The notes under the pieces are model-generated. The model saw only the letters and a program-made list of their open reading frames with translations, was not told where the DNA came from and made no database searches. A stretch of 64,000 nt of DNA, taken from an uncultured Acidobacteriota bacterium (GTDB taxonomy: Bacteria > Acidobacteriota > Vicinamibacteria > Vicinamibacterales > 2-12-FULL-66-21). Position 1 is the stretch's first letter. Each line of letters begins with the position of its first letter. Shown here piece after piece: positions 3,013 to 53,033 of this stretch. The stretch covers positions 372,012-436,011 of the forward strand of contig CAVOHG010000009.1 of the NCBI GenBank assembly GCA_963695655.1. The letters are read 5' to 3'. The translations under genes were made by a program, and so were the position numbers.

Positions 3013-3905
3013 ACAGACCTCGTCCACTCGTCGTATGGCGTTGCATCTGCACGCAGCGCCGCGATCAGAGCCGGCCACGGCTCGCAATGGTATGCCGCGG
3101 CGGCCTCGAACCGTGTTCCGTTCAGGCTCCGATCACAGAAAAAGGCATCGTCGGCTACAACCTTGACGTCCAGGCCAAACGCTTCGACGATCAACCGCAA
3201 TAAGTCGTATTTCGTGATCGTATCACTTGCGATCTGGTACAGACCGTTGAGAGCCGGCCGTTCCTCGATCAACCGGGCGACCACCGACGCGAGCTCGTTC
3301 GTGGTAACGCCCGAGTAGAAGGCCTTGCGATAGCCGCTGATCGTTCGGCCCTGCTGCGCGAGCACCCAGTCCAGCAGCGACCGGTGCCCGGTCAGCTCAC
3401 GCCCGATCATCGACGTCCGCAACGTAAGTGCGTTCGACTCGGTCACTTCGCCGAGCGCCTTGGTCCGCCCATACAGGTCTTCGGCGTCCGGGAGGTCGTC
3501 CTCCGTATACGCCCCTCGGCGACCATTGAAGACGCAGTCCGTGCTGATGTGCACGAGACGGCCGTTCCAGGGCTGCAGCGCCGCTGCCAAACGGTGAGGC
3601 AACAGCGAATTCACGGTGATGCTGGGAATCGCCGCCTTCGCCTCGCCCCGCTGCTTGACGATGCCGACACAGTTCACGACCACGTCCGGACGGAGGGCTG
3701 CCAGCTGACCATCGAGAGCGCCAAGCGCCATGACATCCATGTTCTCGACGATCCGGGCCGACTCGGTGAACAACGGTATGCGGTCGAGTGGTGAATCCGC
3801 GATACGACCGCGGATTGTGCACCACGTGTCGGGAAATCTCTGTCCGAGCGTCTGGAACATCTTGTGGCCGAGCATTCCCGACCCGCCGAGAACGAGAATC
3901 CGCAC
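3009..3905 (-). CDS. RmlD-fold SDR reductase (probable 4-keto reductase of the L-HexNAc branch; WbvR/FnlB role)
   Basis: ORF 3009..3905(-), 298 aa, GTG start. It has MRILVLGGSGMLG (NAD motif), VVNCVGIVKQ, ISTDCVFNG and YGRTKALGE (YxxxK), the dTDP-4-dehydrorhamnose-reductase family layout. Confidence 0.8.
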   Translation of the reverse strand: MRILVLGGSGMLGHKMFQTLGQRFPDTWCTIRGRIADSPLDRIPLFTESARIVENMDVMALGALDGQLAALRPDVVVNCVGIVKQRGEAKAAIPSITVNSLLPHRLAAALQPWNGRLVHISTDCVFNGRRGAYTEDDLPDAEDLYGRTKALGEVTESNALTLRTSMIGRELTGHRSLLDWVLAQQGRTISGYRKAFYSGVTTNELASVVARLIEERPALNGLYQIASDTITKYDLLRLIVEAFGLDVKVVADDAFFCDRSLNGTRFEAAAAYHCEPWPALIAALRADATPYDEWTRSV

Positions 3906-3906
3906 G

Positions 3907-4833
3907 TTAGACCATCACTCCTCTGGCCCACTGCATGTATTCGGGAAGCCCGGTAGCGAGATCCACAGCGGGCCTGAACCCGAATGCCGCGTTCGCCGCG
4001 GAAATGTCCGCGAGGCTGTGCCGCACGTCGCCCGGCCGGGGCGGCGCGTGCTCGATCGAAACCGCCTCACCGGAGAGTTCCACGATCCTGGCGGCGAGAT
4101 CGTTGATCGTGACGCGGGTCGCGCTCGCGATGTTGAAGGCGCCGGAAACCCCTCGAGACATGCCGGCCTGGTAGTTCGCCATCGCGACGTCGTGCACATT
4201 CACGAAGTCGCGCGTCTGCTCGCCATCGCCGTAGATCACGAGCGGCTGCCGGCGCAGCGCGCGGTGGGCAAAAATGGGAATCACGTTGCCATAGGCGTCA
4301 TAGCGCTGGTGCATGCCGTAGACATTGAAGTAGCGAAGGCACACGCACTCGAGCGGATAGAGCTTGGCGTATGCGAGGCAGAGCTTCTCCGCACCGAGCT
4401 TGGTCGCGCCGTAGGGCGAGTCCGGCTCGACCGCGTGATCCTCGCGAATGGGCAGCGTCTTGAGCTCGCCGAAAATACCTGCCGACGAGGAGAAGACGAC
4501 CTTCCGGACGCCGCCGTGGCGCGCCGCCTCGAGCAGGCGGAGCGTGCCCATGACGTTGATGTCGGCGTCCTCCATCGGATACGCAATCGAGCGGGCATTG
4601 CCGACCGATGCGGCGAGATGAAACACCGCCTCGGCTCCGGCAATACCCCGGGCCAGCGCCTCGGCGTCGCGAACGTCGCCCTCGATCAACTCCACCTGTG
4701 GAATCAGGGCGAGGTTGTCACGGTAGCCGGAGGTCAGGTTGTCGAGCACACTCACGTCGTGTCCATGTTCGACAAGAACTTTGACGAGGTTGGACCCGAT
4801 GAAGCCAGCGCCGCCTGTGACCAGTGCTTTCAA
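3907..4833 (-). CDS. NAD-dependent nucleotide-sugar epimerase (GalE/WbpP-like extended SDR)
   Basis: ORF 3907..5325(-) trimmed to TTG 4833, giving MKALVTGGAGFIGSNLV. It also has SSSAGIFG, YGATKLGAE (YxxxK) and RYFNVYG. There is a TTGA overlap with the upstream stop at 4830. The longer track start would overlap the GT4 gene by about 490 nt. Confidence 0.85.
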   Translation of the reverse strand: MKALVTGGAGFIGSNLVKVLVEHGHDVSVLDNLTSGYRDNLALIPQVELIEGDVRDAEALARGIAGAEAVFHLAASVGNARSIAYPMEDADINVMGTLRLLEAARHGGVRKVVFSSSAGIFGELKTLPIREDHAVEPDSPYGATKLGAEKLCLAYAKLYPLECVCLRYFNVYGMHQRYDAYGNVIPIFAHRALRRQPLVIYGDGEQTRDFVNVHDVAMANYQAGMSRGVSGAFNIASATRVTINDLAARIVELSGEAVSIEHAPPRPGDVRHSLADISAANAAFGFRPAVDLATGLPEYMQWARGVMV

Positions 4834-6062
4834 TGCATACTCCCGTCGGCGGCGACCGGTCGGCCGGCACTCTGCCGGACCGCCGCCCTGCTGAGACCGT
4901 CGCTGATGAATGCGTCCAGGGAGCTGCCCATGGCCCGCTCCGAAAAATGCTCTTCGGCGAACGCACGGCCGTGTTGCCGCAGTCGGTCGCGACATCCTGG
5001 CTGCGTCAGCACACGAACGATCGCCGCCGCGAACGCTTTCGGATCGTCCGCTATCAGCAGGTGCTGCCCATCGGCCGCCTCGATGCCCCGATTGGCGGGC
5101 GTCGAGGCGACCACGGGCGTCCGCAGCGCCATTGCCTGCAGCACCTTCGTTTTCAGTCCCGTGCCGATCCGAATCGGACACGCGAGCACGCCGGCCTGGA
5201 CGAAGTGAGGACGCAGATCGTCGACATAGCCGGTCACCGTGACACGCGGACCGGCAAGTGCGACAACGTCCGCGGCAGGGTTCGCGCCGACGATGCGGAC
5301 CGTGGCGCCGGGGATCTCGGCCCATACTCTCGGCATCACCTCGGTCACGAGAAATTGCACTGCCGACCGGCTGTAATGCGTGCTCATTTCGCCGGCGAAC
5401 AGGATTTCGTTCGCGGTGGCGTTTTCACCGCAGTCGTAATCCAGGCAGTCCTGCACGTGCAGCGGGATCACACGGGGCGGTCGCGCTCCTTTGATGCTTG
5501 CGGCGTCCGCGTCGGAAATGATGCTGACGGCATCGAACTTCCGGACGATGGACTCTTCCCAGGCCGCGAGCCGCCGGCTTTCGGCCCGATCCACTGTGCG
5601 CCACGCGATCTCTCCACCGGATCGAAGTTCGGCCCGTTCACGGTATTGGACCGATAGCGCGTCGCACATGTCGAGCACTTGCGCATACGGCGCATCCTCG
5701 GCCCAGTACTGGGCCATGCGCACGAGGTGAAAGTAGACGATGTCGGTGCCGGCGGTCGTCACGATGCGGTGGAGCTCGGCGGCCATCGCGGCCGAGTCGA
5801 AGTAGCCAGTCTGCAGCGGTCGTCCGCGTAGCCCGGCGCGAACCAGCCCAGAGGCCGCCTCGAATCGCCTGACCGGCACCGATGTGACCTGCAGGCCCTC
5901 CGCACGCAACTGTTCAACGTGTTCCAGTTCCGCGGGCGAGCGAACCAACGTCAGAACCTCGATGTCGTGCGTTCGCGCCAGCCATGCGATCTGCTGGCGG
6001 ACGCGGACGCGATCGCCGGAGACCGGGAATGGCGGCCGGGAGGTGAGAAACATCACTCTCAC
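4830..6062 (-). CDS. Glycosyltransferase, GT4 family
   Basis: ORF 4830..6062(-), 410 aa. It reads MRVMFLTSRPPFPVSGDRVRV.., and the C-terminal half has ILFAGEMSTHYSRSAV and PIRIGTGLKTKVLQAMALRTPVVAS (GT-B nucleotide-sugar binding region). GTG 6062 forms a GTGA overlap; ATG 6053 is the alternative. Confidence 0.85.
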   Translation of the reverse strand: MRVMFLTSRPPFPVSGDRVRVRQQIAWLARTHDIEVLTLVRSPAELEHVEQLRAEGLQVTSVPVRRFEAASGLVRAGLRGRPLQTGYFDSAAMAAELHRIVTTAGTDIVYFHLVRMAQYWAEDAPYAQVLDMCDALSVQYRERAELRSGGEIAWRTVDRAESRRLAAWEESIVRKFDAVSIISDADAASIKGARPPRVIPLHVQDCLDYDCGENATANEILFAGEMSTHYSRSAVQFLVTEVMPRVWAEIPGATVRIVGANPAADVVALAGPRVTVTGYVDDLRPHFVQAGVLACPIRIGTGLKTKVLQAMALRTPVVASTPANRGIEAADGQHLLIADDPKAFAAAIVRVLTQPGCRDRLRQHGRAFAEEHFSERAMGSSLDAFISDGLSRAAVRQSAGRPVAADGSMH

Positions 6063-7522
6063 GCGCGGGAGGACCCGGGCTGCCTGACCGCGAGCAGGAC
6101 TACACCGGCAAAGATCGTATTGGTAATGAAGAGTACCGATCCGAACGAGTTCAACCCCGCCAGCAACCAGCCCATGGGAAGCAGCGCGATAGACGAGTAC
6201 CAGAAAACGACCGACGCGTTGTGTCGCTGGGCCGTGAGGTACTCATCGAGGGCCCGCATCACGAGACCCCAGGCGAAAGCGCCAAGCATCACACCGGGGA
6301 TCCAGGCATTGATGTACATCTCGGAAATAAGCCCGAACTCCGGTGTGATCGTTCGGTCGTATGTCGGCTTGAGGACGTCCATCAGGAATGCCGATGTCTG
6401 TGACGGCTTGCCGGGCATGACGCTTCGCGGAATCGGCTGCAGCAGGAAATCCGTTGCGCTCCGGCCCCAGAGGTAACCCTGTCGCTTCGTCGGGAACTCG
6501 TCGATCGTCCAGACAAGGAAATCGAAGTTGTCGAAACGTGCCGCAAAGCGGTCGAGGAGATCGATCCCGAACGCGTTGCTGATGGCCTCGTCGAGGTAGC
6601 GGTCGTTGGAGAAGCCGGCATTGAAGTCGCGATAGACCCCGTATCCACCCACGAAAACGGCCACGACGAAGCAGATCGGTGTGACGACCGCGAGGCTGAG
6701 CCGCCGCTTCAGCACCGCCATATCGAGCACCCACAGGATCCCGATCAGCGGTCCGAGCACGAACCCGCGCGCCCCAAATGGCAGCGTGAACACGACGAGC
6801 ACGCCGGCGAGAGCGCCGAGCGTGAGCAGTCCCAGTGCCGTGACGCCGTCGGGTGCCCGCCAGGTCAACTCGAGAAAGAAAATGGCCCACATGCTCCAGA
6901 GCAGCAGTCCGCTGATGTAGAACAGTCCTTCCGCCGAGGTGACGGCGCGAAAATCCGTCGGTTGAAGGAATGCGGCTCCGAGGCTCATGCCCGACAGTCG
7001 CAACAGAACGAGATACAACACCACCGACAATGCACCCAGGAGGGCCTGAACGATCAAGACCCGACCTCGTGCCCAGGTGGTCTTGGGTACTGGAAAAAAT
7101 CTCGCGAGGCGCACGCCCCATGGCGCGAGGTGTCCGCTGACAAAGGAGAGGACGAAAGCGAGCACGAGCCCAAGCGCCGGCATGAACAGTTCAGGATTCA
7201 CCCGGTCGGCGATTGACTCGACGTCGCCGCGCAAAGACAGGTACAGCGGCCGAACGCAATACGACAGAACGAACGTGACGATTGCCAGTGACAAGGGAGA
7301 AACGAGCGAGACGTCACGCCGAAGCAGAACGGCGCATGCGCAGACGACGAGAATCAATGCGATCAGGAGGGCCATCATCGGAGCCACGAGCACGGCGCCG
7401 AGGACGGCTGTGGCGACCGCGCCGCCAAGGAGCGCAAACGCCAGACCAGCAGCGTTTCTACGCAGCGTGCGGCGCTCCTCCGCGGGCAATGGGAGCCCGA
7501 CCAGTGCTGCCGCCTCGTTCAT
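6059..7522 (-). CDS. Polytopic membrane protein, probable repeat-unit (O-antigen/EPS) polymerase, Wzy-like
   Basis: ORF 6059..7522(-), 487 aa. It is hydrophobic almost throughout (10 or more helices by eye), with one larger loop near RFAARFDNFDFLVWTIDEFPTKRQGYLWGRS. Assignment rests on topology and on its position between the GTs and the flippase, not on a diagnostic motif. Confidence 0.6.
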   Translation of the reverse strand: MNEAAALVGLPLPAEERRTLRRNAAGLAFALLGGAVATAVLGAVLVAPMMALLIALILVVCACAVLLRRDVSLVSPLSLAIVTFVLSYCVRPLYLSLRGDVESIADRVNPELFMPALGLVLAFVLSFVSGHLAPWGVRLARFFPVPKTTWARGRVLIVQALLGALSVVLYLVLLRLSGMSLGAAFLQPTDFRAVTSAEGLFYISGLLLWSMWAIFFLELTWRAPDGVTALGLLTLGALAGVLVVFTLPFGARGFVLGPLIGILWVLDMAVLKRRLSLAVVTPICFVVAVFVGGYGVYRDFNAGFSNDRYLDEAISNAFGIDLLDRFAARFDNFDFLVWTIDEFPTKRQGYLWGRSATDFLLQPIPRSVMPGKPSQTSAFLMDVLKPTYDRTITPEFGLISEMYINAWIPGVMLGAFAWGLVMRALDEYLTAQRHNASVVFWYSSIALLPMGWLLAGLNSFGSVLFITNTIFAGVVLLAVRQPGSSRA

Positions 7523-8500
7523 CTACGCGCGCCCGTACCGCAGCCGTCGAATGGTCCGTGTGACTTTACTGATCGGGCGGAAGAGCGGCGGGTTCAGCAG
7601 AACGCCCCAGGTGAACCAGTGGTAAGGCGACAACCTGTCCAGCACCAGGGCGCGAAGATCGTACTTGGCAGGCTTGAAGACCGTGCGGTGCGCCTCGAAG
7701 TCGCCATCGACTTCAATCGCGGATTGGTCCATCGTGCCGAATCCGGTTGCGGCCGCAAGGGGGATATGTCGTGCCCTGGCGACGTCGAGGCCGACCAGCC
7801 GCATGGCGGTAGCGTCGAGCGCGACGACGTCCCGGCTGGCGAGCACGAGATCCAGCCTGCGCGGATCTCCGTAACTCGGTCCCATCCCTTCCATCGCGAC
7901 GATGGCGTCCATGATGGCGAAGTGGGGGCGGAGCAGGCGAGGAAGCTCGGCCAGGCATTCGTGGAGGTGTCGATGCATGAAGAACCGGTCGACTCGCGGC
8001 ACGCAGCCCCACATGTTCTTGATCGCGCCGGTGAAATACCCCTGCACGTGCGTCTTGAGTACCGGCATCGAGATGAAGACGTCCGCATCGAGGATTTCGG
8101 CGGGAAGCTCAAAGCCGTCGAATCGCGGCGAGTCGGCGCGCCGCGTCGGCCGCCGCGAGAAGTTCACGAGTTCGAACTTCAGCTCGCGCGCGAGGTCGTA
8201 CAACCCGTTCAACTCGAACGCGTCCTCGGCAGGGCACGTGCGCGGAGGGTTGATCATGTCCGACTCGCCAACCGTGATGTTCGGTGTACGGGTCTGCAGA
8301 ATTCGGATGACCGCGGCCAGCAATTCCATTGACGTGTTCGCCGCCTCGACGCGCTCCGGATCAAGCGAGACCAGGTTGGGCTTGATCACGACACGCGCAC
8401 CAGGCTTGACGACGTCCGTCCACCCACAAGCGTCCATCGCCGATCGGACGACGTCTTCGAGGGCGCCGTGTTTTGTCGATCTGATGGCTACGATTGGCAT
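7523..8500 (-). CDS. DUF362 domain-containing protein
   Basis: ORF 7523..8767(-) trimmed to ATG 8500 (MPIVAIRSTKHG..). It has VVIKPNLVS, ITVGESD, ADVFISMPVLKTHVQGYFTGAIKNMWGCVP and IMDAIVAMEGMGP, which are the DUF362 hallmarks. Its stop TAG abuts the Wzy ATG. Confidence 0.8.
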   Translation of the reverse strand: MPIVAIRSTKHGALEDVVRSAMDACGWTDVVKPGARVVIKPNLVSLDPERVEAANTSMELLAAVIRILQTRTPNITVGESDMINPPRTCPAEDAFELNGLYDLARELKFELVNFSRRPTRRADSPRFDGFELPAEILDADVFISMPVLKTHVQGYFTGAIKNMWGCVPRVDRFFMHRHLHECLAELPRLLRPHFAIMDAIVAMEGMGPSYGDPRRLDLVLASRDVVALDATAMRLVGLDVARARHIPLAAATGFGTMDQSAIEVDGDFEAHRTVFKPAKYDLRALVLDRLSPYHWFTWGVLLNPPLFRPISKVTRTIRRLRYGRA

Positions 8501-35357: not shown

Positions 35358-37181
35358 ATGCTGAAACCACGCCTCGGCGTTGCCGTGCTTTTGACCGTTC
35401 TGCTGTCTGCCGCACCGCGAATGCCGCCGCGATTTCCCTGACCTGGGATCGCAACGCGGAATCCACGGTGACTGGCTACGTGGTGCAAGTCGGCAGCACT
35501 CCTGGCGGCACGGACCAGGCCATTGACATCGGCAACCAGATCTCGTGGACGTTCGGGTCGGCAGTTGCCGGCAAGACGTATTACTTTCGCGTCCTGGCGT
35601 ACAACGCCGCCGGCGCGAGCAGCCTCCCGTCGAACGAGGTCTCGGGCGCGGCTCCGGTTCCGACCAACGTGCCGCCGTTCGGGAGTTTCGATACGCCGAC
35701 CAACAACGCGACGGGGCTGACGGGATCGGTGGCGGTGACTGGTTGGGCGCTCGACGACAACGGGGTCACGCGTGTCCGGATCCTTCGTGCGACCCGTGGC
35801 GGGCGAGACGCCAGGAACGCTGGTCTACATCGGCGACGCGTCACGCGTGCCCGGTGCCCGTCCGGACATCGCCGCGAAGCTAACCCGACCGCTGCTCAGA
35901 AGGACCGCGCTGGATGGGGCTACCTGTTGCTCTCGCTGTTCCTTCCGAACCTCGGGCAACGGCACGTTCACGCTCTATGCCTATGCAGACGACGGCGACG
36001 GACATTCGACGCTTGCTCGGCACCAAGACGATCACGTGCGCCAACTGCGAGCTTCGATCACTCCCGTTCGGCGCGATCGATACGCCGGGCCAGGGCGAGG
36101 TCGTCAGCGGAGTCGTCAATAACTTCGGCTGGGTGCTGGCGCCGGGAAACTCGCCGCGCCGATCCGACCCCGGCGGCGGAACCGTGCGGGTCGTCATCGA
36201 CGGTGTCGCCTGTCGGAAGTCCCGACCGGTTGGACCACCCGCACCGATCTCACGAGCCTCTTTCCCCGTCGCGAGCTACAAAGGGATCGCCACCGCACTC
36301 GGCGTGTTCACGTTCGACAGCCGCACCCTGACGAACGGCATCCATACGATTGCCTGGGCCGTGACCGACAACATGGGAGGCACGTGCCGGCGTCGGCAGC
36401 CGGTACTTCACGGTCGCGAACGCGTCGGCTTCTACCGCGGCGTCGACCGCGGCAAGCACGGCGTCGGAGAGCGCGGCAACCGCTGCCGTCGCGCAGGTGG
36501 CACGACGCCGCTCGTCGGACGTCACGGCTACGACCTCGATGCGCCCTGGCGCAATTACCGCGCGAACTCGGCCGGCGTCGTCGTCGTCCAGTCCGAGGAG
36601 CTCGATCGAATCGAGCTGTATACGCAGGCAACGAGCGGGTCGCTCGTGACCGCAAACGGTCTGCGCCATCTGCCGATCGGCGCCAGCCTCGATGGCGGCG
36701 TGTTCACGTGGCAGCCGGGTGCAGGTTTCGTCGGCTCTTACGACTTCCTGTTCACCGGGCCCGCCGGTGATCGCCAGGTGCGCATCGTCCTGAACCCGAA
36801 GGGTAGTGGACGGGTCGGACCGCAGGTGGTCATCGACACGCCGTCACGCAGCACGAAGGGCCTGGTCGCGGCCGACCAGCCGTTCGTCATCGCCGGGTGG
36901 GCCGCCGATCTCGGACTCGACGGTCGATGGCGGAGTGGACGCCGTCCACATCTGGGCGTATCCGCGCAAGCGGCGGCGACCCCATCTTCCTCGGACAGGC
37001 GTCGCTCGGAGGCATGCGCCCCGACGTGGCCGCGGTCTACGGCAACCGGTTCCTGATGAGTGGCTACGGCGGCACGGCCGCCGGGCTGCCCGCAGGCGAC
37101 TACGACATCGCGGTGTTCGGCTGGAGCACCGTCCTGCAAGGCTGGGCGCCGGCGAGCACGGTCACGATTCGAGTGCGCTAA
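35358..37181 (+). pseudogene. Secreted FN3-domain protein carrying the Ig-like part of the shared C-terminal module (third paralog); many frame breaks
   Basis: AAGGAG (35348-35353) precedes ATG 35358. Signal peptide: MLKPRLGVAVLLTVLLSAA. The frame shifts by about 35420 to ANAAAISLTWDRNAESTVTGYVVQVGSTPGG..KTYYFRVLAYNAAGAS (FN3), then PPFGSFDTPTNNATGLTGSVAVTGWALDD. Fragments are ORFs 35468..36331, 35772..36122, 35914..37056 and 36897..37181 (stop TAA 37179-37181). Confidence 0.7.
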
Positions 37182-37186
37182 CGATC

Positions 37187-37360
37187 ACAGGTTCTACAGG
37201 GTTCTACGAGGTTCTCACAGGGTTCTACAGGTTCGGCGGGTTCTACAGGTTCGGCGGGTTCTACAGGTTCGGCGAGGTTCTGCAGAACCGAACCAAGTAG
37301 AACCCGTAGAACCGAACCAGGTAGAACCCCGTGAGAACCCGGTAGAACCTCGTAGAACCC
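37187..37360. repeat. Long imperfect palindrome built from GGTTCTAC / GTAGAACC units
   Basis: The left arm has GGTTCTAC-type units at 37190, 37200, 37210 and 37221, then the 18-mer AGGTTCGGCGGGTTCTAC three times (37229-37282). The centre is the perfect 14-nt palindrome GGTTCTGCAGAACC (37276-37289). The right arm carries GTAGAACC/GAACC units to 37360. Confidence 0.9.
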
Positions 37361-37372: not shown

Positions 37373-38472
37373 GTGGAAGAAATAGACGTTCTCGTTGTCG
37401 GCGCTGGTGTCGTCGGGCTCGCGTGCGCTGCGGAAATCGGTCTCTCGGGTCTGACGGTCTGTCTCGTCGAGCGCCATCCGCGCGCGGGGATGGAGACAAG
37501 CACCCACAACAGCGGTGTCCTTCACGCTGGTATCTACTATCCCCCCAACAGTTTGAAAGCGTTGCTCTGCGTCGAGGGGCAGCGTCTGCTCTATGAGTTC
37601 AGTGCCAGGTACGGGGTTCCTCACCAGCGCTGCGGAAAGCTGATCACTGCGTCGGCATCCTCACGAGATCGGCGCGCTCGAAGCCCTCATGGCGCGAGGG
37701 AATGCGAATGGTGCGGACTCACTTCAGATGATCGATCGAGCGGAGACGCTCAGGCGTGAGCCAAACGTTGCCGCGGTTGCTGCCATCTGGTCGCCCGGTA
37801 CCGGGATCATCGAGCCGGAGGCGCTGGTACGAACGCTGCGCGATCTCTGCACCGCACGCGATGTCGTATTCCTGCCGGGAACGACTGTGCTGAGAGCGGA
37901 ACCGGCCGCGGACGCACTGGACGTTTACACGGGCTCGGAAACGATTCGCGCCCGCACCGTGATCAATGCCGCTGGTCTCTACGCCGACGAGGTGTCGGAG
38001 GCATGCGGAGGCGAGACGTTCAGGATCTATCCGGTGCGGGGCGAGTACGCGGAGCTCGTGCCGGCAAGACGATCACTCGTCAACGGCTTGATCTACCCGT
38101 TGCCCCACGCCTCCGGGCCACGGCCTCGGAGTCCACGTCACCAAAACCACCTGGGGAGGCGTCCTGTTTGGACCGACGGCGGCATACCAGGAACGGAAGG
38201 ACGACTACGAGGGCAATCGCATTCCCGTCGAAGCCTTCGTCGAGCCCGCGCGGGAATTGCTGCCGGGCATCCAGCTCGAGGACCTTCGACCGGGCGGAAC
38301 CGGCATCCGGCCGAAGTTGCATCCGCCCGAAGACTCGTTTGCAGACTTCATGATCCGACGCGACTCGCGCATACCCGCGCTGATCCAGGCCGCTGGAATC
38401 GAATCGCCAGGGTTGACGGCTTGCCTCGCAATTGCGAGGCGTGTTGGGGCGCTGGTTCAGGAGAGCGCGTAG
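37373..38472 (+). pseudogene. lhgO: L-2-hydroxyglutarate oxidase / FAD-dependent oxidoreductase (LhgO family), 2 or more frame breaks
   Basis: It begins (GTG)[21 protein letters not shown] and has [22 protein letters not shown]. It continues in ORF 37689..38624 (..[23 protein letters not shown]) and ends in ORF 38257..38472 (..[25 protein letters not shown]). Confidence 0.75.
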
Positions 38473-48746: not shown

Positions 48747-49379
48747 ATGAGCACCCTTTTGCGCGTTTCCTCTCTGCTTTTTGTCCTCGGATTTCAGGCC
48801 GCCCCGACCGAACCTGGCTGGACGAGCCTTTTCAACGGAAAGGATTTGACCGGCTGGAAAGTCGTCACGCCGGCGTCATGGACCGTCAAGGACGGCGCGA
48901 TCGTGGCGAATGGCATGGCCGGCCATGTTTATTACGACGGCGAGTTCAAGAACCACATGTTCCGCAACTTCGAGCTCAAGGTGGACGTGATGGCGAAGGC
49001 GAATTCAAACGGCGGCGTCTATGTCCTGACCGAATACCAGGACACCGGATTCCCCAAGAAGGGATTCGAGATCCAGGTGAACAACACCTATAACCGCGAC
49101 CCTGTGAAGACGGGCAGCCTGTATCACGTGCAGGACGTCACCGAAGCGCTGCCGAAAGACGACGAGTGGTTCACCGAACACATCATCGTCAAGGGCAACA
49201 ACATCACCGTCAAGGTGAACGACAAGCAGGTGGTGGACTGGACGCAGCCCGCGGACTGGAACGGCGGCAAGGAGGGTCCAGGGCGCGCGATCAGTGGCCC
49301 GGGAACCATTGCGTTGCAGGCTCACGACCCGAACAGCACGGTGTACTACAAGAACATCCGGATCAAACCGCTCGACTGA
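48747..49379 (+). CDS. DUF1080 (3-keto-disaccharide hydrolase-like) domain protein, secreted
   Basis: ORF 48699..49379(+) trimmed to ATG 48747 (MSTLLRVSSLLFVLGFQA signal). It has WTSLFNGKDLTGWK, WTVKDGAIV, FRNFELKVDV, NSNGGVYV, FEIQVNN, KTGSLY and IALQAHDPNSTVYYKNIRIKPL. Confidence 0.85.
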   Translation: MSTLLRVSSLLFVLGFQAAPTEPGWTSLFNGKDLTGWKVVTPASWTVKDGAIVANGMAGHVYYDGEFKNHMFRNFELKVDVMAKANSNGGVYVLTEYQDTGFPKKGFEIQVNNTYNRDPVKTGSLYHVQDVTEALPKDDEWFTEHIIVKGNNITVKVNDKQVVDWTQPADWNGGKEGPGRAISGPGTIALQAHDPNSTVYYKNIRIKPLD

Positions 49380-50921
49380 CGGCCGACGGGAGAGGCGGAG
49401 CCGGCGTGCTCCGTCCCTCCCCCTTCTCGACGTACTGCCGCTCCGTCGCGCGGATCGCCTTGTACCTGGCGAATACCGCACGCGCATCCTCGAGACCAAT
49501 CGCCGACCGCCACGTACTGCCGCGGAAGGTATGGGCCATCATCCGTGCACCGTTCTTCAGCACGAACCCCGGATAGTGCCTCACGACCGAAGGAAGGTGG
49601 CGCACCTTCATCCAACGCTCGGCCCGCCATCTCGAGAACTCGATATCGTCGGCGGAGAGATGACGGCTCTTGACGACTGCTGTCGTCCCGTCGTACTCCT
49701 CGACCCGCTCACTCACGATCAGCCCGCGTTCGCGAAAGTCCTTCGTCATCGGAGTGCCGGGGTAGGGGGTCGGATGCTGGATGTACGGCCAGTCGACGAA
49801 ACGGCTCGCAAACCGCAGGTTCGTGTCGATCGACTCCTGCGTGTCATCGGGATTGCCGACGATGATGCCGCCGACGACGTACATGCCGGCACGGTGGATC
49901 CGATCGATGGCTGAGAGGGTCGCGTTGCCTGTCCTCCTGCCTCCCTCACGCTGGGCGTTCTTGGCGCTCGCCTTGAGGAACTCGAGGTCATCGTCGAGCA
50001 CATTCTCGATCCCCAGGAACACGTAGCGGAACCCGGCCGCGTGCATCAGCGGCGCGAGCGTCTCGCCATGATTGGCGATCGACGAGGTCATCGCCTGGAC
50101 GATGTAGTGGATGTCGTTGAAGCCGGCGGCGATGATCGCCCTGCACATCGCCTCGAACCGGGCGACGTTCAGCGTGATGTTGTCGTCGACGATGAAAATC
50201 GCGCGCGCGCCTCTCGCCCGTGCGTCGGCAATGTCGGCCAGGACTCGTTCGAACCCGAACGTGTGGAAGTTTCGACCGCGCATCTCGATGATCGAACAGA
50301 AGCTGCAGTCGAAGGTGCAGCCGCGCGAGGTTTCCACGATGTCAATCGGGCGGCCGAGAAAGGTGTACCCGTCGAGCACGCGCGAGCCGCGGTCAGGGAG
50401 CGCAATCGAGCCATCGTCCAGTCCGCTGACCGGTCGCGGCGGGTGGTGAACGAACCGGTTGCCGTCGTGGATCGACAGTCCCGCGAATCGCGTCAACCGG
50501 CTGGCCGCCGTTCCAGGCAGCGGAGCAGATCACGAAAGGTGAGGTCCCCTTCGCCGCGGACGATGAAGTCCACGCCCGACCCCGGTTCCTCGTAGGCTTC
50601 GGGCGCGAGGCTGGGGTCGTACCCGCCGGCCACGACCGTCACGCCCGGCTTGATCGCGCGAATCAGGCGGACGAGTTCGAGTGCGGTCTTGCGCTGGAAC
50701 GTCATCACCGAGAGGCCGACGACGTCAGGATCGCCGTCACGCATCAGGCGCTCGACCACGGATCGCACCTGCGCCTGGACGAGGACGAGATCGGCAACCG
50801 AGACGCGATGGTGCCGGTCGACATTGCCGGCGAGCGACGCCAGTGCTCCGTTCGGCATCCGCATCGTGAGTGCAGGCGTGTGCTCGAATGAGTCCGGCAT
50901 CGAGAGGAGCAGTACTCGCAT
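49363..50921 (-). pseudogene. B12-binding-domain radical SAM protein, one frame break near 50495
   Basis: ORF 50493..50921(-) reads MRVLLLSMPD..DVVGLSVMTFQ..VVAGGYDPS..IVRGEGDLTF (B12-binding domain). ORF 49363..50496(-) has IVETSRGCTFDCSFCSI (CxxxCxxC), IFIVDDNITLN and FLGIENV. Its 3' end overlaps the DUF1080 gene by 17 nt (convergent). Confidence 0.82.
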
Positions 50922-50948
50922 CGCAACCTCGTGTGGAAGCTTCGCCTC

Positions 50949-51155
50949 CAGCTGTCAGCTATCAGTTTTCAGCTATCAGCTATCAGCTTCAGTCAGCTCT
51001 GGCCATCGGCTTTTAACTTCAGCATCCGGATCATGGGATCCAGGAACTCGTTTCAGCCCTCAAGACTGCAACGTGCAGCTGATATCAGGTCTTTTCACCA
51101 ATAACTGATAGCTGATAGCTGACAGCTGATAACTGACAGGCGACAGCTGACAGCT
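50949..51155. repeat. Inverted arrays of the heptamer CAGCTAT flanking a core of about 100 bp
   Basis: Left arm (50949-50998): CAGCTGT CAGCTAT CAGTTTT CAGCTAT CAGCTAT CAGCTTC .. CAGCT. Right arm (51103-51155): AACTGAT AGCTGAT AGCTGAC AGCTGAT AACTGAC AGGCGAC AGCTGAC AGCT, which is the reverse complement. It fills the spacer between the LLM stop and the rSAM start. Confidence 0.9.
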
Positions 51156-51156
51156 C

Positions 51157-52224
51157 CTATGCCGCCGTCATCCGGTCCCGCACTTCCGCGACGATTTCGA
51201 AGGTTCTCAGCCGTGCGATGTGATCGAACACCTGCGCGGTCAGGATCAACTCGTCGGCTGAGGTCGCCGCGATGAGGGTGGTCAGTCGAGCCGCAACGGT
51301 GTCCGGAGATCCGATTGCCGCGTAAGCCATCGCATGTTCCACACCAGCCTGCTCGAACGGCGTCCATCGCCCCTCCATGCTGTCGACCGGCGGCTGCAGC
51401 GGTCCAGGCGTCCCCCTCCGGAGATTCACCCACTGCTGCTGGAGCGAGGTGGCGAGGCGCTCAGCTTCGGCGTCCGTGTCTGCCGCGACGACGCTGACAC
51501 CGACCATCGCATACGGCCGCTGGAGCTGCTCCGACGGTCTGAACTGGCGTCTGTAGATGTCGAGCGCCTGCATCAGGTAATCGGGAGCGAAGTGTGACGC
51601 GAACGCGAATGGCATCCCGAGCGCCGCGGCCAGTTGGGCGCTGAAGAGGCTGGAACCAAGCAGCCAGATCGGCACTCGTAGTCCTGCGCCCGGAATCGCA
51701 CGGACAACCTGGCCCGGCTGCACCGGTGCAAGATACGCGCGCAGTTCCTGCACATCGCGAGCGAAGTTCTCTTCGGTGGCTGAAAAATCGCGGCGGAGTG
51801 CGCGCGCGGTCGTCTGGTCGGTGCCCGGGGCGCGGCCGATGCCCAGATCGATGCGCTCAGGATAGAGCGATTCGAGAGTGCCGAACTGTTCGGCGATGAC
51901 GAGTGGCGCATGATTCGGCAGCATGACGCCACCGGAACCTACGCGAATCGTGCTCGTTCCACCGGCGACGTGCCCGATGACGACGGCCGTCGCGGCGCTG
52001 GCGATCCCCGGCATGTTGTGGTGTTCGGCGAGCCAGTAGCGGTGGTAATCCCAACGCTCTGCGTGCCGGGCCAGGTCGAGCGTGTTGCCGAGCGCCTGCG
52101 CGGCAGACCCGCCTTCGATGATGGGCGAAAGATCGAGCACCGAAAACGGGATCGTTGGGCATTGCTCTGGTGCGCCCCCGACATGGGGACACTCAACTGT
52201 ACGGTAAGCCGCCGGTCCGTTCAA
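51157..52224 (-). CDS. LLM-class flavin-dependent oxidoreductase (luciferase-like monooxygenase family)
   Basis: ORF 51157..52224(-), 355 aa. It has [91 protein letters not shown]. The start is uncertain (TTG 52224 or GTG 52140). Confidence 0.85.
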
Positions 52225-52253
52225 AAAACAAATGCGGGCTCATCCGATACGTG

Positions 52254-52352
52254 CGGGACTGCGGGATCGGGCTCGGGATCGGGGATCAGGGATTCAGGGA
52301 TTAAGGATCGGGAGATCGATTGGGAACTGGTCGACTGGCGACTGGTTGCAAC
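52254..52352 (+). repeat. G-tract / GATC-rich tandem array ending in the palindrome GGTTGCAACC
   Basis: Nine G3-4 tracts fall in about 70 nt (52255, 52263, 52269, 52275, 52281, 52289, 52297, 52310, 52322), mostly as GGGATC units. There are five GATC sites (52265, 52277, 52284, 52306, 52314). ACTGGTCG/ACTGGCG/ACTGGTTG repeats follow, then GGTTGCAACC at 52343-52352. Confidence 0.85.
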
Positions 52353-52361
52353 CGATATCAC

Positions 52362-53033
52362 CTAACTGAGGCACTCCAGGACTGCCGCATCGAACGCTCC
52401 CGCGACCTCCATCAGCGAACGGTTGCCGTCAATGGCGCGGAATGTCGGGCCTTTCCGATACCACTCGACGAGCGGCGCGGTGTTCTCGACGTATTCCGCG
52501 ACCCGGCGCTTGATCACCTCCACGTGATCGTCAGCGCGCTTGACGAAGGAGCCGCCGCAGGACGCGCAATATTCGGTCGTCGGTGCCCCGGTGTCGGCCT
52601 GGCCGCAGCTTTCGCAGATTCGCCTGGAGAGAATGCGGTTGATGATGACGTCAGGGCTGACGTCGAGGTAGATGACAATCAGCGCGCCCCGCCCGCTCAT
52701 GACGCGATCGAGCGCGAGCGCCTGGGGCAGCGTGCGCGGAAAACCGTCGAGCACGAAACCAGCGGCGGTATCCGGAAGCTGTAGCCGGTCTTCGACCACC
52801 CTGATGATCAGGTCGTCAGGGACGAGGCCGCCCGCGGCCAGTGTCGCCTCGACTTCACGGCCGAGCGCGGTTCCGCGGGCGACAGCGTCGCGAAGCATGT
52901 CACCGGTCGAAATCTTGGGGATGCGGTGGCGACGCGCAAACTGCGCGCCCTGAGTCCCTTTACCGGAACCTGGCAGCCCGACGACGACGATATTACGGGG
53001 CCCGGATCCGGCCTTTCGCCGTTCCTCGTTCAC
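52362..53033 (-). CDS. adk: Adenylate kinase (Zn-lid type)
   Basis: 3' part of ORF 52362..54563(-). It has NIVVVGLPGSGKGTQGAQFARRHRIPKISTGDMLR, GFVLDGFPRT, the lid CESCG..CASCGG, and RADD. The start is assigned to GTG 53033 (VNEERRKAGSGPRNIVVVG) and is uncertain. Confidence 0.85.
   Translation of the reverse strand: MNEERRKAGSGPRNIVVVGLPGSGKGTQGAQFARRHRIPKISTGDMLRDAVARGTALGREVEATLAAGGLVPDDLIIRVVEDRLQLPDTAAGFVLDGFPRTLPQALALDRVMSGRGALIVIYLDVSPDVIINRILSRRICESCGQADTGAPTTEYCASCGGSFVKRADDHVEVIKRRVAEYVENTAPLVEWYRKGPTFRAIDGNRSLMEVAGAFDAAVLECLS

Follow-up and report, generated by a model that had tools for sequence, protein, structure and literature searches.

Opposed arrays of a seven-nucleotide unit, predicted to fold into a long intercistronic hairpin, between a luciferase-like monooxygenase gene and a radical-SAM gene of an uncultured Acidobacteriota bacterium

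The stretch of DNA analyzed here (the window; 64,000 nucleotides of contig CAVOHG010000009.1, assembly GCA_963695655.1) derives from an uncultured member of the Acidobacteriota and contains two opposed arrays of heptanucleotide units separated by a nonrepetitive core. This element fills the entire intercistronic spacer between a gene for a luciferase-like monooxygenase (LLM) and a gene for a B12-binding radical S-adenosylmethionine (rSAM) enzyme, both encoded on the minus strand. The features of the locus, in the order in which they would be read on the mRNA and with the positions of the window, are the following:

51157-52162, minus strand: upstream gene, LLM-class flavin oxidoreductase (Pfam Bac_luciferase), which, compared with its relatives, has a 1-nt indel following codon 4
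51157-51159, minus strand: stop codon (TAG) of the LLM gene
51101-51155, minus strand: arm that comes 5' on the mRNA, with about 7-8 UCAGCUN-type heptamers, beginning 1 nt after the LLM stop codon
50999-51100, minus strand: nonrepetitive core of about 102 nt, the loop of the long hairpin
51066-51078, minus strand: small CTGCA-ACG-TGCAG hairpin within the core, not conserved in the related contig L006
50949-50998, minus strand: arm that comes 3' on the mRNA, with about 6-7 NAGCUGA-type heptamers, ending 27 nt before the rSAM AUG
50919-50930, minus strand: ATG of the rSAM gene (50919-50921) and, upstream of it, its Shine-Dalgarno-like GAGG motif (50927-50930), neither of them part of the long stem
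49363-50921, minus strand: downstream gene, B12-binding rSAM enzyme, split here into open reading frames (ORFs) of 142 and 377 aa, whereas its relatives are 517-518 aa long

On the plus strand, the left arm (50949-50998) reads CAGCTGT CAGCTAT CAGTTTT CAGCTAT CAGCTAT CAGCTTC AGTCAGC and the right arm (51101-51155) reads A TAACTGA TAGCTGA TAGCTGA CAGCTGA TAACTGA CAGGCGA CAGCTGA CAGCT. On the mRNA, the 3' arm is therefore ..GAAGCUGA UAGCUGA UAGCUGA AAACUGA UAGCUGA CAGCUGG, which is referred to as the "forward" orientation and carries UGA/UAG stops in all frames. The dominant unit is NNNCTGA, mostly in the form YAGCTGA, with TAGCTGA and CAGCTGA making up most of the units; the literal TAACTGA, one base away from YAGCTGA, occurs in just two of them (51102-51108 and 51130-51136). 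An initial annotation of this DNA, made from the letters alone, had counted eight heptamers on each side. The tandem and opposed nature of the arrays is borne out, the count being slightly generous: Tandem Repeats Finder reports 6.4 copies of CAGCTAT for the left arm (period 7, 50949-50992) and 7.3 copies for the right arm (period 7, 51105-51155, with period-14 and period-28 rows that start at 51101), and six to eight units per arm are obtained depending on how the degenerate ones are counted. The same annotation was correct in ending the right arm 1 nt before the LLM stop codon (arm end at 51155), and the small hairpin that it noticed in the core is present, one base to the left of the 51067-51079 given there. 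A 13-codon ORF in the core (MIRMLKLKADGQS) was considered and rejected, its ATG being replaced in L006. The sequence CAGCTGATATCAG is located at 51076-51088.

The 14-mer CAGCTATCAGCTAT, which corresponds to a double unit, has 10 matches with at most two mismatches in the 64-kb window, nine of them within the element, against 0.06 expected from shuffles. The GC content across the element is 0.48-0.53, compared with about 0.65 in the flanks. The best inverted pairing of the arms covers 40 nt with 88% complementarity (50949-50988 with 51110-51149), leaving 121 nt between them. Folding of the minus, mRNA-sense strand gives -115.7 kcal/mol with a z score of -8.8, and none of 200 shuffled sequences was as stable; the plus strand gives -95.2 kcal/mol (z = -6.3). 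The predicted stem, the foot of which abuts the LLM stop codon, encloses the core with about 45-49 inter-arm pairs, in agreement with the stem of about 45 bp anticipated earlier. When 1-4 units were removed or added in silico, 33-54 inter-arm pairs remained. Any register can pair because six of the seven positions of the unit are constant or palindromic. Rfam covariance models had no match at gathering score across the window, and raising the limit to E = 10 in 50800-51300 gave two matches at chance level.

The element is not an artefact of the assembly, as homologous arrays occupy the same locus in independent short-read contigs (L006, L007 and L001/L002) and in another long-read contig (L144). 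These contigs, with others that are more divergent, form a series of orthologous spacers that can be ordered by the nucleotide identity of their LLM genes to that of the window. In the closest ones, L144 (97%), L006 (96%) and L007 (96%), the core is shared at 90%, 81% and 85% identity, respectively, and the arms are rebuilt, with 4-6 TCAGnnn units on the left and 6-13 nnnCTGA units on the right. Each of these alleles has its own runs of units: four perfect copies of AAACTGA in L006, TTGCTGA/TTGCTAA in L007 and TCGCTAA in L144. Hence, four alleles with flanks that are 96-97% identical differ in the number and the variants of their units, and the differences are whole 7-nt units. The core, 81-90% identical among the four closest alleles, also evolves faster than the flanking coding DNA. 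At 86% identity, L001/L002 have 3-4 units per arm around a loop of about 35 nt, with a stem of about 30 bp and the core mostly absent. The contigs L003/L004 (81%) contain AGCCGGA units and AGCTGAG remnants without a reverse arm, L142 (80%) has a spacer of 130 nt made of about 15 forward-only units (AGTCGGA, AGGCTGA, CAGCTGA) that run up to the ribosome-binding site (RBS), and L008 (79%) has a spacer of 91 nt without repeats. A long stem is predicted for each allele that has both arms (z from -3.0 to -10.3).

Read along this series, the locus is a hypervariable tandem-repeat site that changes unit by unit and not an insertion with defined ends. By the same comparison, the forward array close to the rSAM start is the older part, and the reverse array behind the LLM stop codon is a later addition restricted to the closer clade.

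Heptanucleotide repeats of this kind have been described before. According to the summary of Mrazek (2007) given in PMC4679880, they are the most abundant class of long simple sequence repeats (SSRs) in most of the prokaryotic genomes surveyed. The element has the properties of this class, namely at least three head-to-tail 7-nt units, an intergenic position near gene ends and copy variation by whole units between close strains. The first precedent is the TAACTGA repeat of Beggiatoaceae, Cyanobacteria and Bacteroidetes, which occurs as direct repeats forward of start codons, those of ribosomal-protein operons included; the study arrived at no mechanism and proposed a post-transcriptional regulator (MacGregor 2015, PMC4679880). 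In both cases the units are 7 nt long and end in CTGA, are intergenic, occur in ribosomal-protein operons and change in 7-nt indel steps between strains. In both, the stop-rich forward orientation faces the start codon, here as (NAGCUGA)n upstream of the rSAM RBS, and both are patchily distributed among phyla, with Cyanobacteria and Bacteroidota among the hosts. The two differ in that YAGCTGA dominates here, a unit of which the Beggiatoa genome contains no repeats (PMC4679880, Table 3), in that inverted pairs are common here whereas the TAACTGA survey lists 169 direct sets and one indirect repeat (PMC4679880), and in that the hosts include Acidobacteriota and several phyla not listed there.

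The second precedent is given by the cyanobacterial short tandemly repeated repetitive (STRR) sequences, 7-bp repeats that form a hairpin between hupS and hupL and for which roles in transcript stability or translational coupling were suggested (PMC2670836). They too are heptamer repeats in a spacer between cistrons and are able to fold into a hairpin, although the sequence of the units and the phylum differ, and the arms are here separate opposed arrays around a core of 102 nt. The third is the (ATCTTTC)n hairpin in the 5' untranslated region of hmw1A/hmw2A of Haemophilus influenzae, for which it was shown experimentally that RNase III cuts the hairpin and that expression is set by the number of repeats (PMC12721329). 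A heptanucleotide SSR of variable number upstream of an initiation codon and a long hairpin (here predicted, about 49 pairs) are common to both systems; in hmw, however, the partner arm is a G-rich nonrepeat and the leader, that of a phase-variable adhesin in a pathogenic host, is monocistronic, while here the case consists of a sequence and a predicted fold. Hairpins built of YAGCTGA were not described in anything that literature searches on the unit and on intercistronic heptamer hairpins brought up. The anatomy, which has 7-nt units without spacers and no conserved core sites, ruled out readings as CRISPR, iteron or attC. By its repeats, then, the element is a locus-specific pair of opposed NNNCTGA arrays that belong with the TAACTGA/STRR repeats and are arranged as a hairpin, that is, a YAGCTGA variant of a class already known.

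An exact pattern scan for AGCTGAYAGCTGAYAGCTGA in one genome per species identified at least 119 (AGCTGAY)3 stretches distributed across many phyla. Judged by their record titles, the matches listed include about 33 from Acidobacteriota, 26 from Cyanobacteria, 15 from Bacteroidota, 9 from Chloroflexota, 7 each from Planctomycetota and Gemmatimonadota, 5 from Gammaproteobacteria (mostly Vibrionaceae), 4 from Myxococcota and a few others, and several metagenome-assembled genomes (MAGs) among them give more than one locus. Cultured species rich in these repeats include Geothrix alkalitolerans and Moorena. Arrays were then called symmetrically, as three or more units with either CTGA or TCAG recurring every 7 nt. 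Among the matches listed, adjacent arrays within 150 nt are arranged as 5'-(TCAGnnn)n..(nnnCTGA)n-3' in 44 cases, in the opposite way in 1 and co-oriented in 10 (binomial p 3e-12), and the element of the window has the majority polarity on both strands. An inverted pair is present within 150 nt at 40 loci and within 400 nt at 44 loci, among the at least 119 listed. The arms lie at a median of 22-25 nt from gene ends, as judged by inspection and crude ORF calls at loci chosen for three perfect units; with the same rough gene calls, the left arm often starts right on the stop codon (TAGCTnTCAGCT...), and 1-30 nt separate the end of the right arm from an ATG.

This polarity is left without a convincing explanation; both arrangements yield the same duplex. 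Two candidate rules, stops in all frames and C-rich sequence after stop codons (rut-like), were discarded because they fail for other heptamer families of the lineage, such as CTTCCAG/CTGGAAG, which has no stops, and TCCCTGA, which has one. At one of the cross-phylum loci (contig L024, 4268-4296, Geothrix alkalitolerans SG263), the loop between TCAG and CTGA arrays holds a canonical GC-rich hairpin followed by a T-run (GGGCGCCGATGGCGCCCGCTGTTTTGT); thus, the arrays bracket a terminator at some loci.

The same architecture is found elsewhere in the lineage. The MAG Holy_63, which holds the 81% orthologue L003, also contains a contig (L073) with the cluster rpmJ-rpsM-rpsK-rpsD-rpoA-rplQ (region 3750-7570), the genes of which were identified by Pfam matches to S13, S11, S4, RpoA and L17, the rpmJ product being recognized only by visual inspection. 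Each of the five spacers between rpmJ and rplQ carries a hairpin with heptamer arms, which begins at the stop codon and leaves 10-25 nt to the following ATG. The units are TCAGCTN/NAGCTGA in three spacers and CTTCCAG/CTGGCAG in the other two, and the z scores of the folds range from -2.4 to -5.1. Downstream of rplQ there is a canonical terminator, as well as another array, of TCAGCCA. Because the cluster is essential and highly expressed, the hairpins must be either tolerated or used there, which argues against a role in termination and for an intercistronic role at the RNA level.

Within the window, a second palindrome fills another spacer, from a gene end at 37181 to the start at 37373 of an ORF with a GxGxxG motif that resembles FAD oxidoreductases. 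In this palindrome (37187-37360), GGTTCTACAG/GGTTCGGCG units with a period of 9-10 face CTGTAGAACC-type units without any loop, and the RNA fold reaches -114.1 kcal/mol (z -10.5); the unit is unrelated, and the architecture is like that of the element between LLM and rSAM. Other heptamers are present on the opposite side of the LLM gene, in the spacer that separates it from the adenylate kinase gene (ADK). There, shortly after the adenylate kinase stop codon, positions 52262-52346 contain GGGATCG, GGGATCA and GGGATTCA (plus strand; C-rich on the mRNA strand). The orthologous ADK-LLM spacers contain TCCCCAG in L001 (9776-9812), CCCCGAA and CCCTAAT in L007 (151-217), and CCAGTAA and TCCCnGA in L144 (3790-3900). 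The first of these matches the consensus of STRR1, which we take to be CCCCAGT. The GGGATCN units of the window recall the GGGNATC heptamers of the G-quadruplex type known from Xanthomonas and Nostoc, which are intergenic and mostly located between co-oriented ORFs near gene ends (Rehm 2015, PMC4692102); this resemblance concerns the ADK-LLM spacer and not the element, from which the class differs both in its unit and in the proposed quadruplex structure.

Taken as a whole, the reading that we favor, to which we assign a probability of roughly 0.55, is that slippage-generated heptanucleotide SSR arrays fold into a register-tolerant intercistronic mRNA stem that probably affects the processing or coupling of the downstream gene. 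Replication slippage would create and resize the arrays, helped by the self-complementary AGCT/CAGCTG core of the unit. Beside the start codon, only the purine-richer, GAGAG-containing and stop-rich strand would be viable. On the presumed LLM-rSAM co-transcript, the two arms would zip into a long stem that tolerates any register. With a complementary array behind the upstream stop codon, the expanded spacer would fold away, so that the LLM stop codon and the rSAM RBS stay near each other and the untranslated RNA is double-stranded. By analogy with hmw1A, the stem of about 45 bp would be a likely substrate of RNase III and/or an element of coupling or stability, and the number of units would tune rSAM expression. 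Coupling by ribosome-driven unfolding is an established model (PMC12548453).

Several observations weigh against this reading. That LLM and rSAM are co-transcribed, that the stem forms in vivo and that it has any effect on rSAM are steps that we infer. The order of the units is not mirrored between the arms beyond what is expected from permutation, the sharing of variable triplets by two arms is no greater within a locus (0.25) than between loci (0.22), and the lengths of the arms correlate weakly (Spearman 0.13, p 0.35). A maintained palindrome and a recent inverted duplication were both dropped on these grounds, the tests of arm co-evolution being negative or weak. In addition, close alleles may have very unequal arms, as in L144 with 5 versus 13 units. 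Since the arms evolve independently and can be so unequal, selection for the full stem is weak at best. Simple sequestration of the RBS does not apply, because the stem does not include the rSAM Shine-Dalgarno motif, and relatives get by with a single arm or with neither. Finally, slippage alone fails to account for the near-invariance of CTGA beside three variable positions, as well as for the fact that the NNNCTGA unit recurs in distant phyla and is concentrated in certain genomes.

The position of the Shine-Dalgarno motif and the relatives that do without one or both arms make a tolerated, nonfunctional repeat the main rival, and it is a possibility of some substance even though we judge it clearly less probable than the favored one. 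According to this explanation, the arrays are a neutral by-product: they are prone to slippage and without function in cis, their expansion outpaces decay, only orientations that do no harm survive near gene ends, and the hairpin is incidental. The independent evolution of the arms fits this, and so do the divergence of the core (10-19%, against 3-4% in the flanking gene), the lack of one or both arms in relatives and the occurrence of unrelated heptamers in other spacers of the lineage (TCCCCAG, CCCCGAA, GGGATCN, CTTCCAG). However, a polarity of 44:1 of the inverted pairs, among the matches listed, is hard to obtain from drift. The near-invariance of CTGA within the units and the flush fit from stop codon to RBS also speak against neutrality, as do the hairpins found in every one of the five spacers in the essential ribosomal-protein cluster of Holy_63. 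Moreover, forward arrays at the LLM-rSAM locus persist down to 80% flank identity despite the fast turnover of their units.

A more ambitious explanation, which appears rather doubtful at present, is that the pairs belong to a cross-phylum class of polar "zipper" hairpins that stretch from stop to start codon and are kept by a dedicated mechanism, either a protein that reads the heptads or a self-propagating process of the foldback type that seeds gene boundaries. Such a mechanism would account for a polarity of 44:1, for a CTGA that does not vary, for the accumulation of arrays in particular genomes and for the filled rpmJ-rplQ spacers.

Alternatively, the heptads may be binding sites of a sequence-specific RNA- or DNA-binding protein, in which case the arrays and not the stem would be functional. 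Proteins of this kind exist: HutP reads UAG triplets every 7 nt, TRAP is another RNA-binding example, and the omega repressor binds arrays of 7-bp heptads of DNA in direct or inverted order. The conservation of CTGA/TCAG at a strict 7-nt period with three variable positions would be expected of a binding site, and the fixed polarity relative to gene ends and the presence of the NNNCTGA unit in many phyla, clustered in particular genomes among the matches listed, point the same way. For TAACTGA, MacGregor proposed a post-transcriptional regulator (PMC4679880). Nevertheless, no candidate protein was found here or in the literature consulted, the variants of the unit are numerous, and quite different heptamers appear in the same architecture in other spacers of the lineage, which argues against one partner. 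We regard a heptad-binding protein as unlikely.

The initial annotation had also likened the element to a miniature inverted-repeat transposable element (MITE), while voicing doubts because the arms are tandem repeats and neither a target-site duplication (TSD) nor a transposase was seen. Those doubts were justified. MITEs, Correia elements and the repetitive extragenic palindromic family (REP, BIME, REPIN) are short intergenic hairpin-formers often located at gene ends, and REP hairpins can stabilize the upstream mRNA. Elements of these types are dispersed copies of one sequence that spread by means of a transposase or RAYT, and MITEs carry TSDs. The element differs from all of these in its locus-specific sequence, its tandem-array arms and its gain and loss of units. 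Terminal inverted repeats are present (the 40 nt with 88% complementarity), each arm being itself a tandem array. No TSD occurs at the arms: the flanks are ...cgcctc|CAGCTG and CAGCT|cctatg, and what they share is no more than the unit's own palindromic AGCT. The 64-kb window contains the core just once, and the core's most conserved 18-mer, GCTGAAACGAGTTCCTGG, gave 14 matches in a collection of metagenome contigs, all in unrelated contexts and attributable to chance, in a search that required exact identity and is thus of limited sensitivity. High-copy, near-identical palindromic units of 20-40 nt, as in REP, BIME or REPIN arrays, are likewise missing, as the window has no other copy and the palindrome at 37187-37360 has an unrelated unit. 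The comparison of filled and empty sites that had been proposed revealed no such dichotomy: the orthologous spacers change gradually, heptamer by heptamer, may carry a single arm and, in the more distant relatives, lack the reverse arm. A mobile MITE or foldback-type element with terminal inverted repeats made of tandem heptads would explain the inverted arms, their fixed polarity relative to the interior across phyla (among the matches listed), which is like that of transposon ends, and the abundance of NNNCTGA arrays in particular genomes. However, no transposase was seen adjoining the element, and within one related genome the loops show no relationship from locus to locus, some being just 6-10 nt long, so that this explanation, given the missing TSD and core copies, is very unlikely.

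The least probable reading, that the stem is a transcription terminator or attenuator separating LLM from rSAM, is prompted by a very stable stem that starts directly after a stop codon and by the hairpin with a T-run inside the loop of L024, but it is very unlikely here, where GGAGGCGAAGC and no U-tract follows the stem, a scan of 50850-52400 for sigma-70-like promoters and intrinsic terminators found none and no rSAM promoter is predicted in or after the element, and where the architecture recurs inside the rpsM-rplQ cluster, which has its separate canonical terminator after rplQ.

Regarding the wider setting, the nearest homologues of the LLM come from soil metagenomes and from MAGs labelled Acidobacteriota, and the gene order PAP2-ADK-LLM-rSAM-(3-keto-disaccharide hydrolase)-PBP-holB-PSP1-pdxA-smpB is kept in relatives. 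In two contigs with an LLM protein identity of 84-87%, L005 (11006-11093) and L143 (5009-5036), the B12-rSAM gene is absent and a convergent gene for the 3-keto-disaccharide hydrolase directly follows LLM; hence, not every relative has the gene that lies downstream of the repeat spacer. Upstream of LLM, between its start and the ADK-side repeats, lies a conserved block, TTTTTTGAAC-N17-TACAGT (TTGAAC-N17-TACAGT), which is promoter-like and falls under the threshold of the promoter scan. It is found at about 52185-52230 of the window (minus strand), at 240-290 of L007, at 9925-9975 of L001 and at 3940-3990 of L144, and it suggests that the LLM gene may have a promoter of its own. Frameshift-like sites are present in the window at 52150-52165, 50493-50496, 36897-37181 and 37373-37759/37689-38624. 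LLM has one extra base after ATGCCCAAC, and the two genes beside the 37.2-kb palindrome are likewise split. The contig L144, from an ENA assembly with "contig_"-style names, shows equal gene fragmentation. The split genes probably reflect an error-prone long-read assembly of the window, or else gene decay.

Heptanucleotide repeats pose questions of origin, of recurring unit sequences and of function. To these the LLM-rSAM locus contributes a clean natural series, which leads from a spacer with no array to a forward array, then to a paired hairpin and finally to hypervariable alleles, and it ties the TAACTGA phenomenon of Beggiatoa and Cyanobacteria to soil Acidobacteria and to several other phyla. 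On the practical side, elements of this type lead to broken assemblies and spurious ORFs. Of the findings reported here, the polarity across phyla and the saturation of the ribosomal-protein cluster most deserve to be followed. These two features bear on the choice between translational coupling or mRNA processing, on the one hand, and a new mutational or propagation process, on the other.

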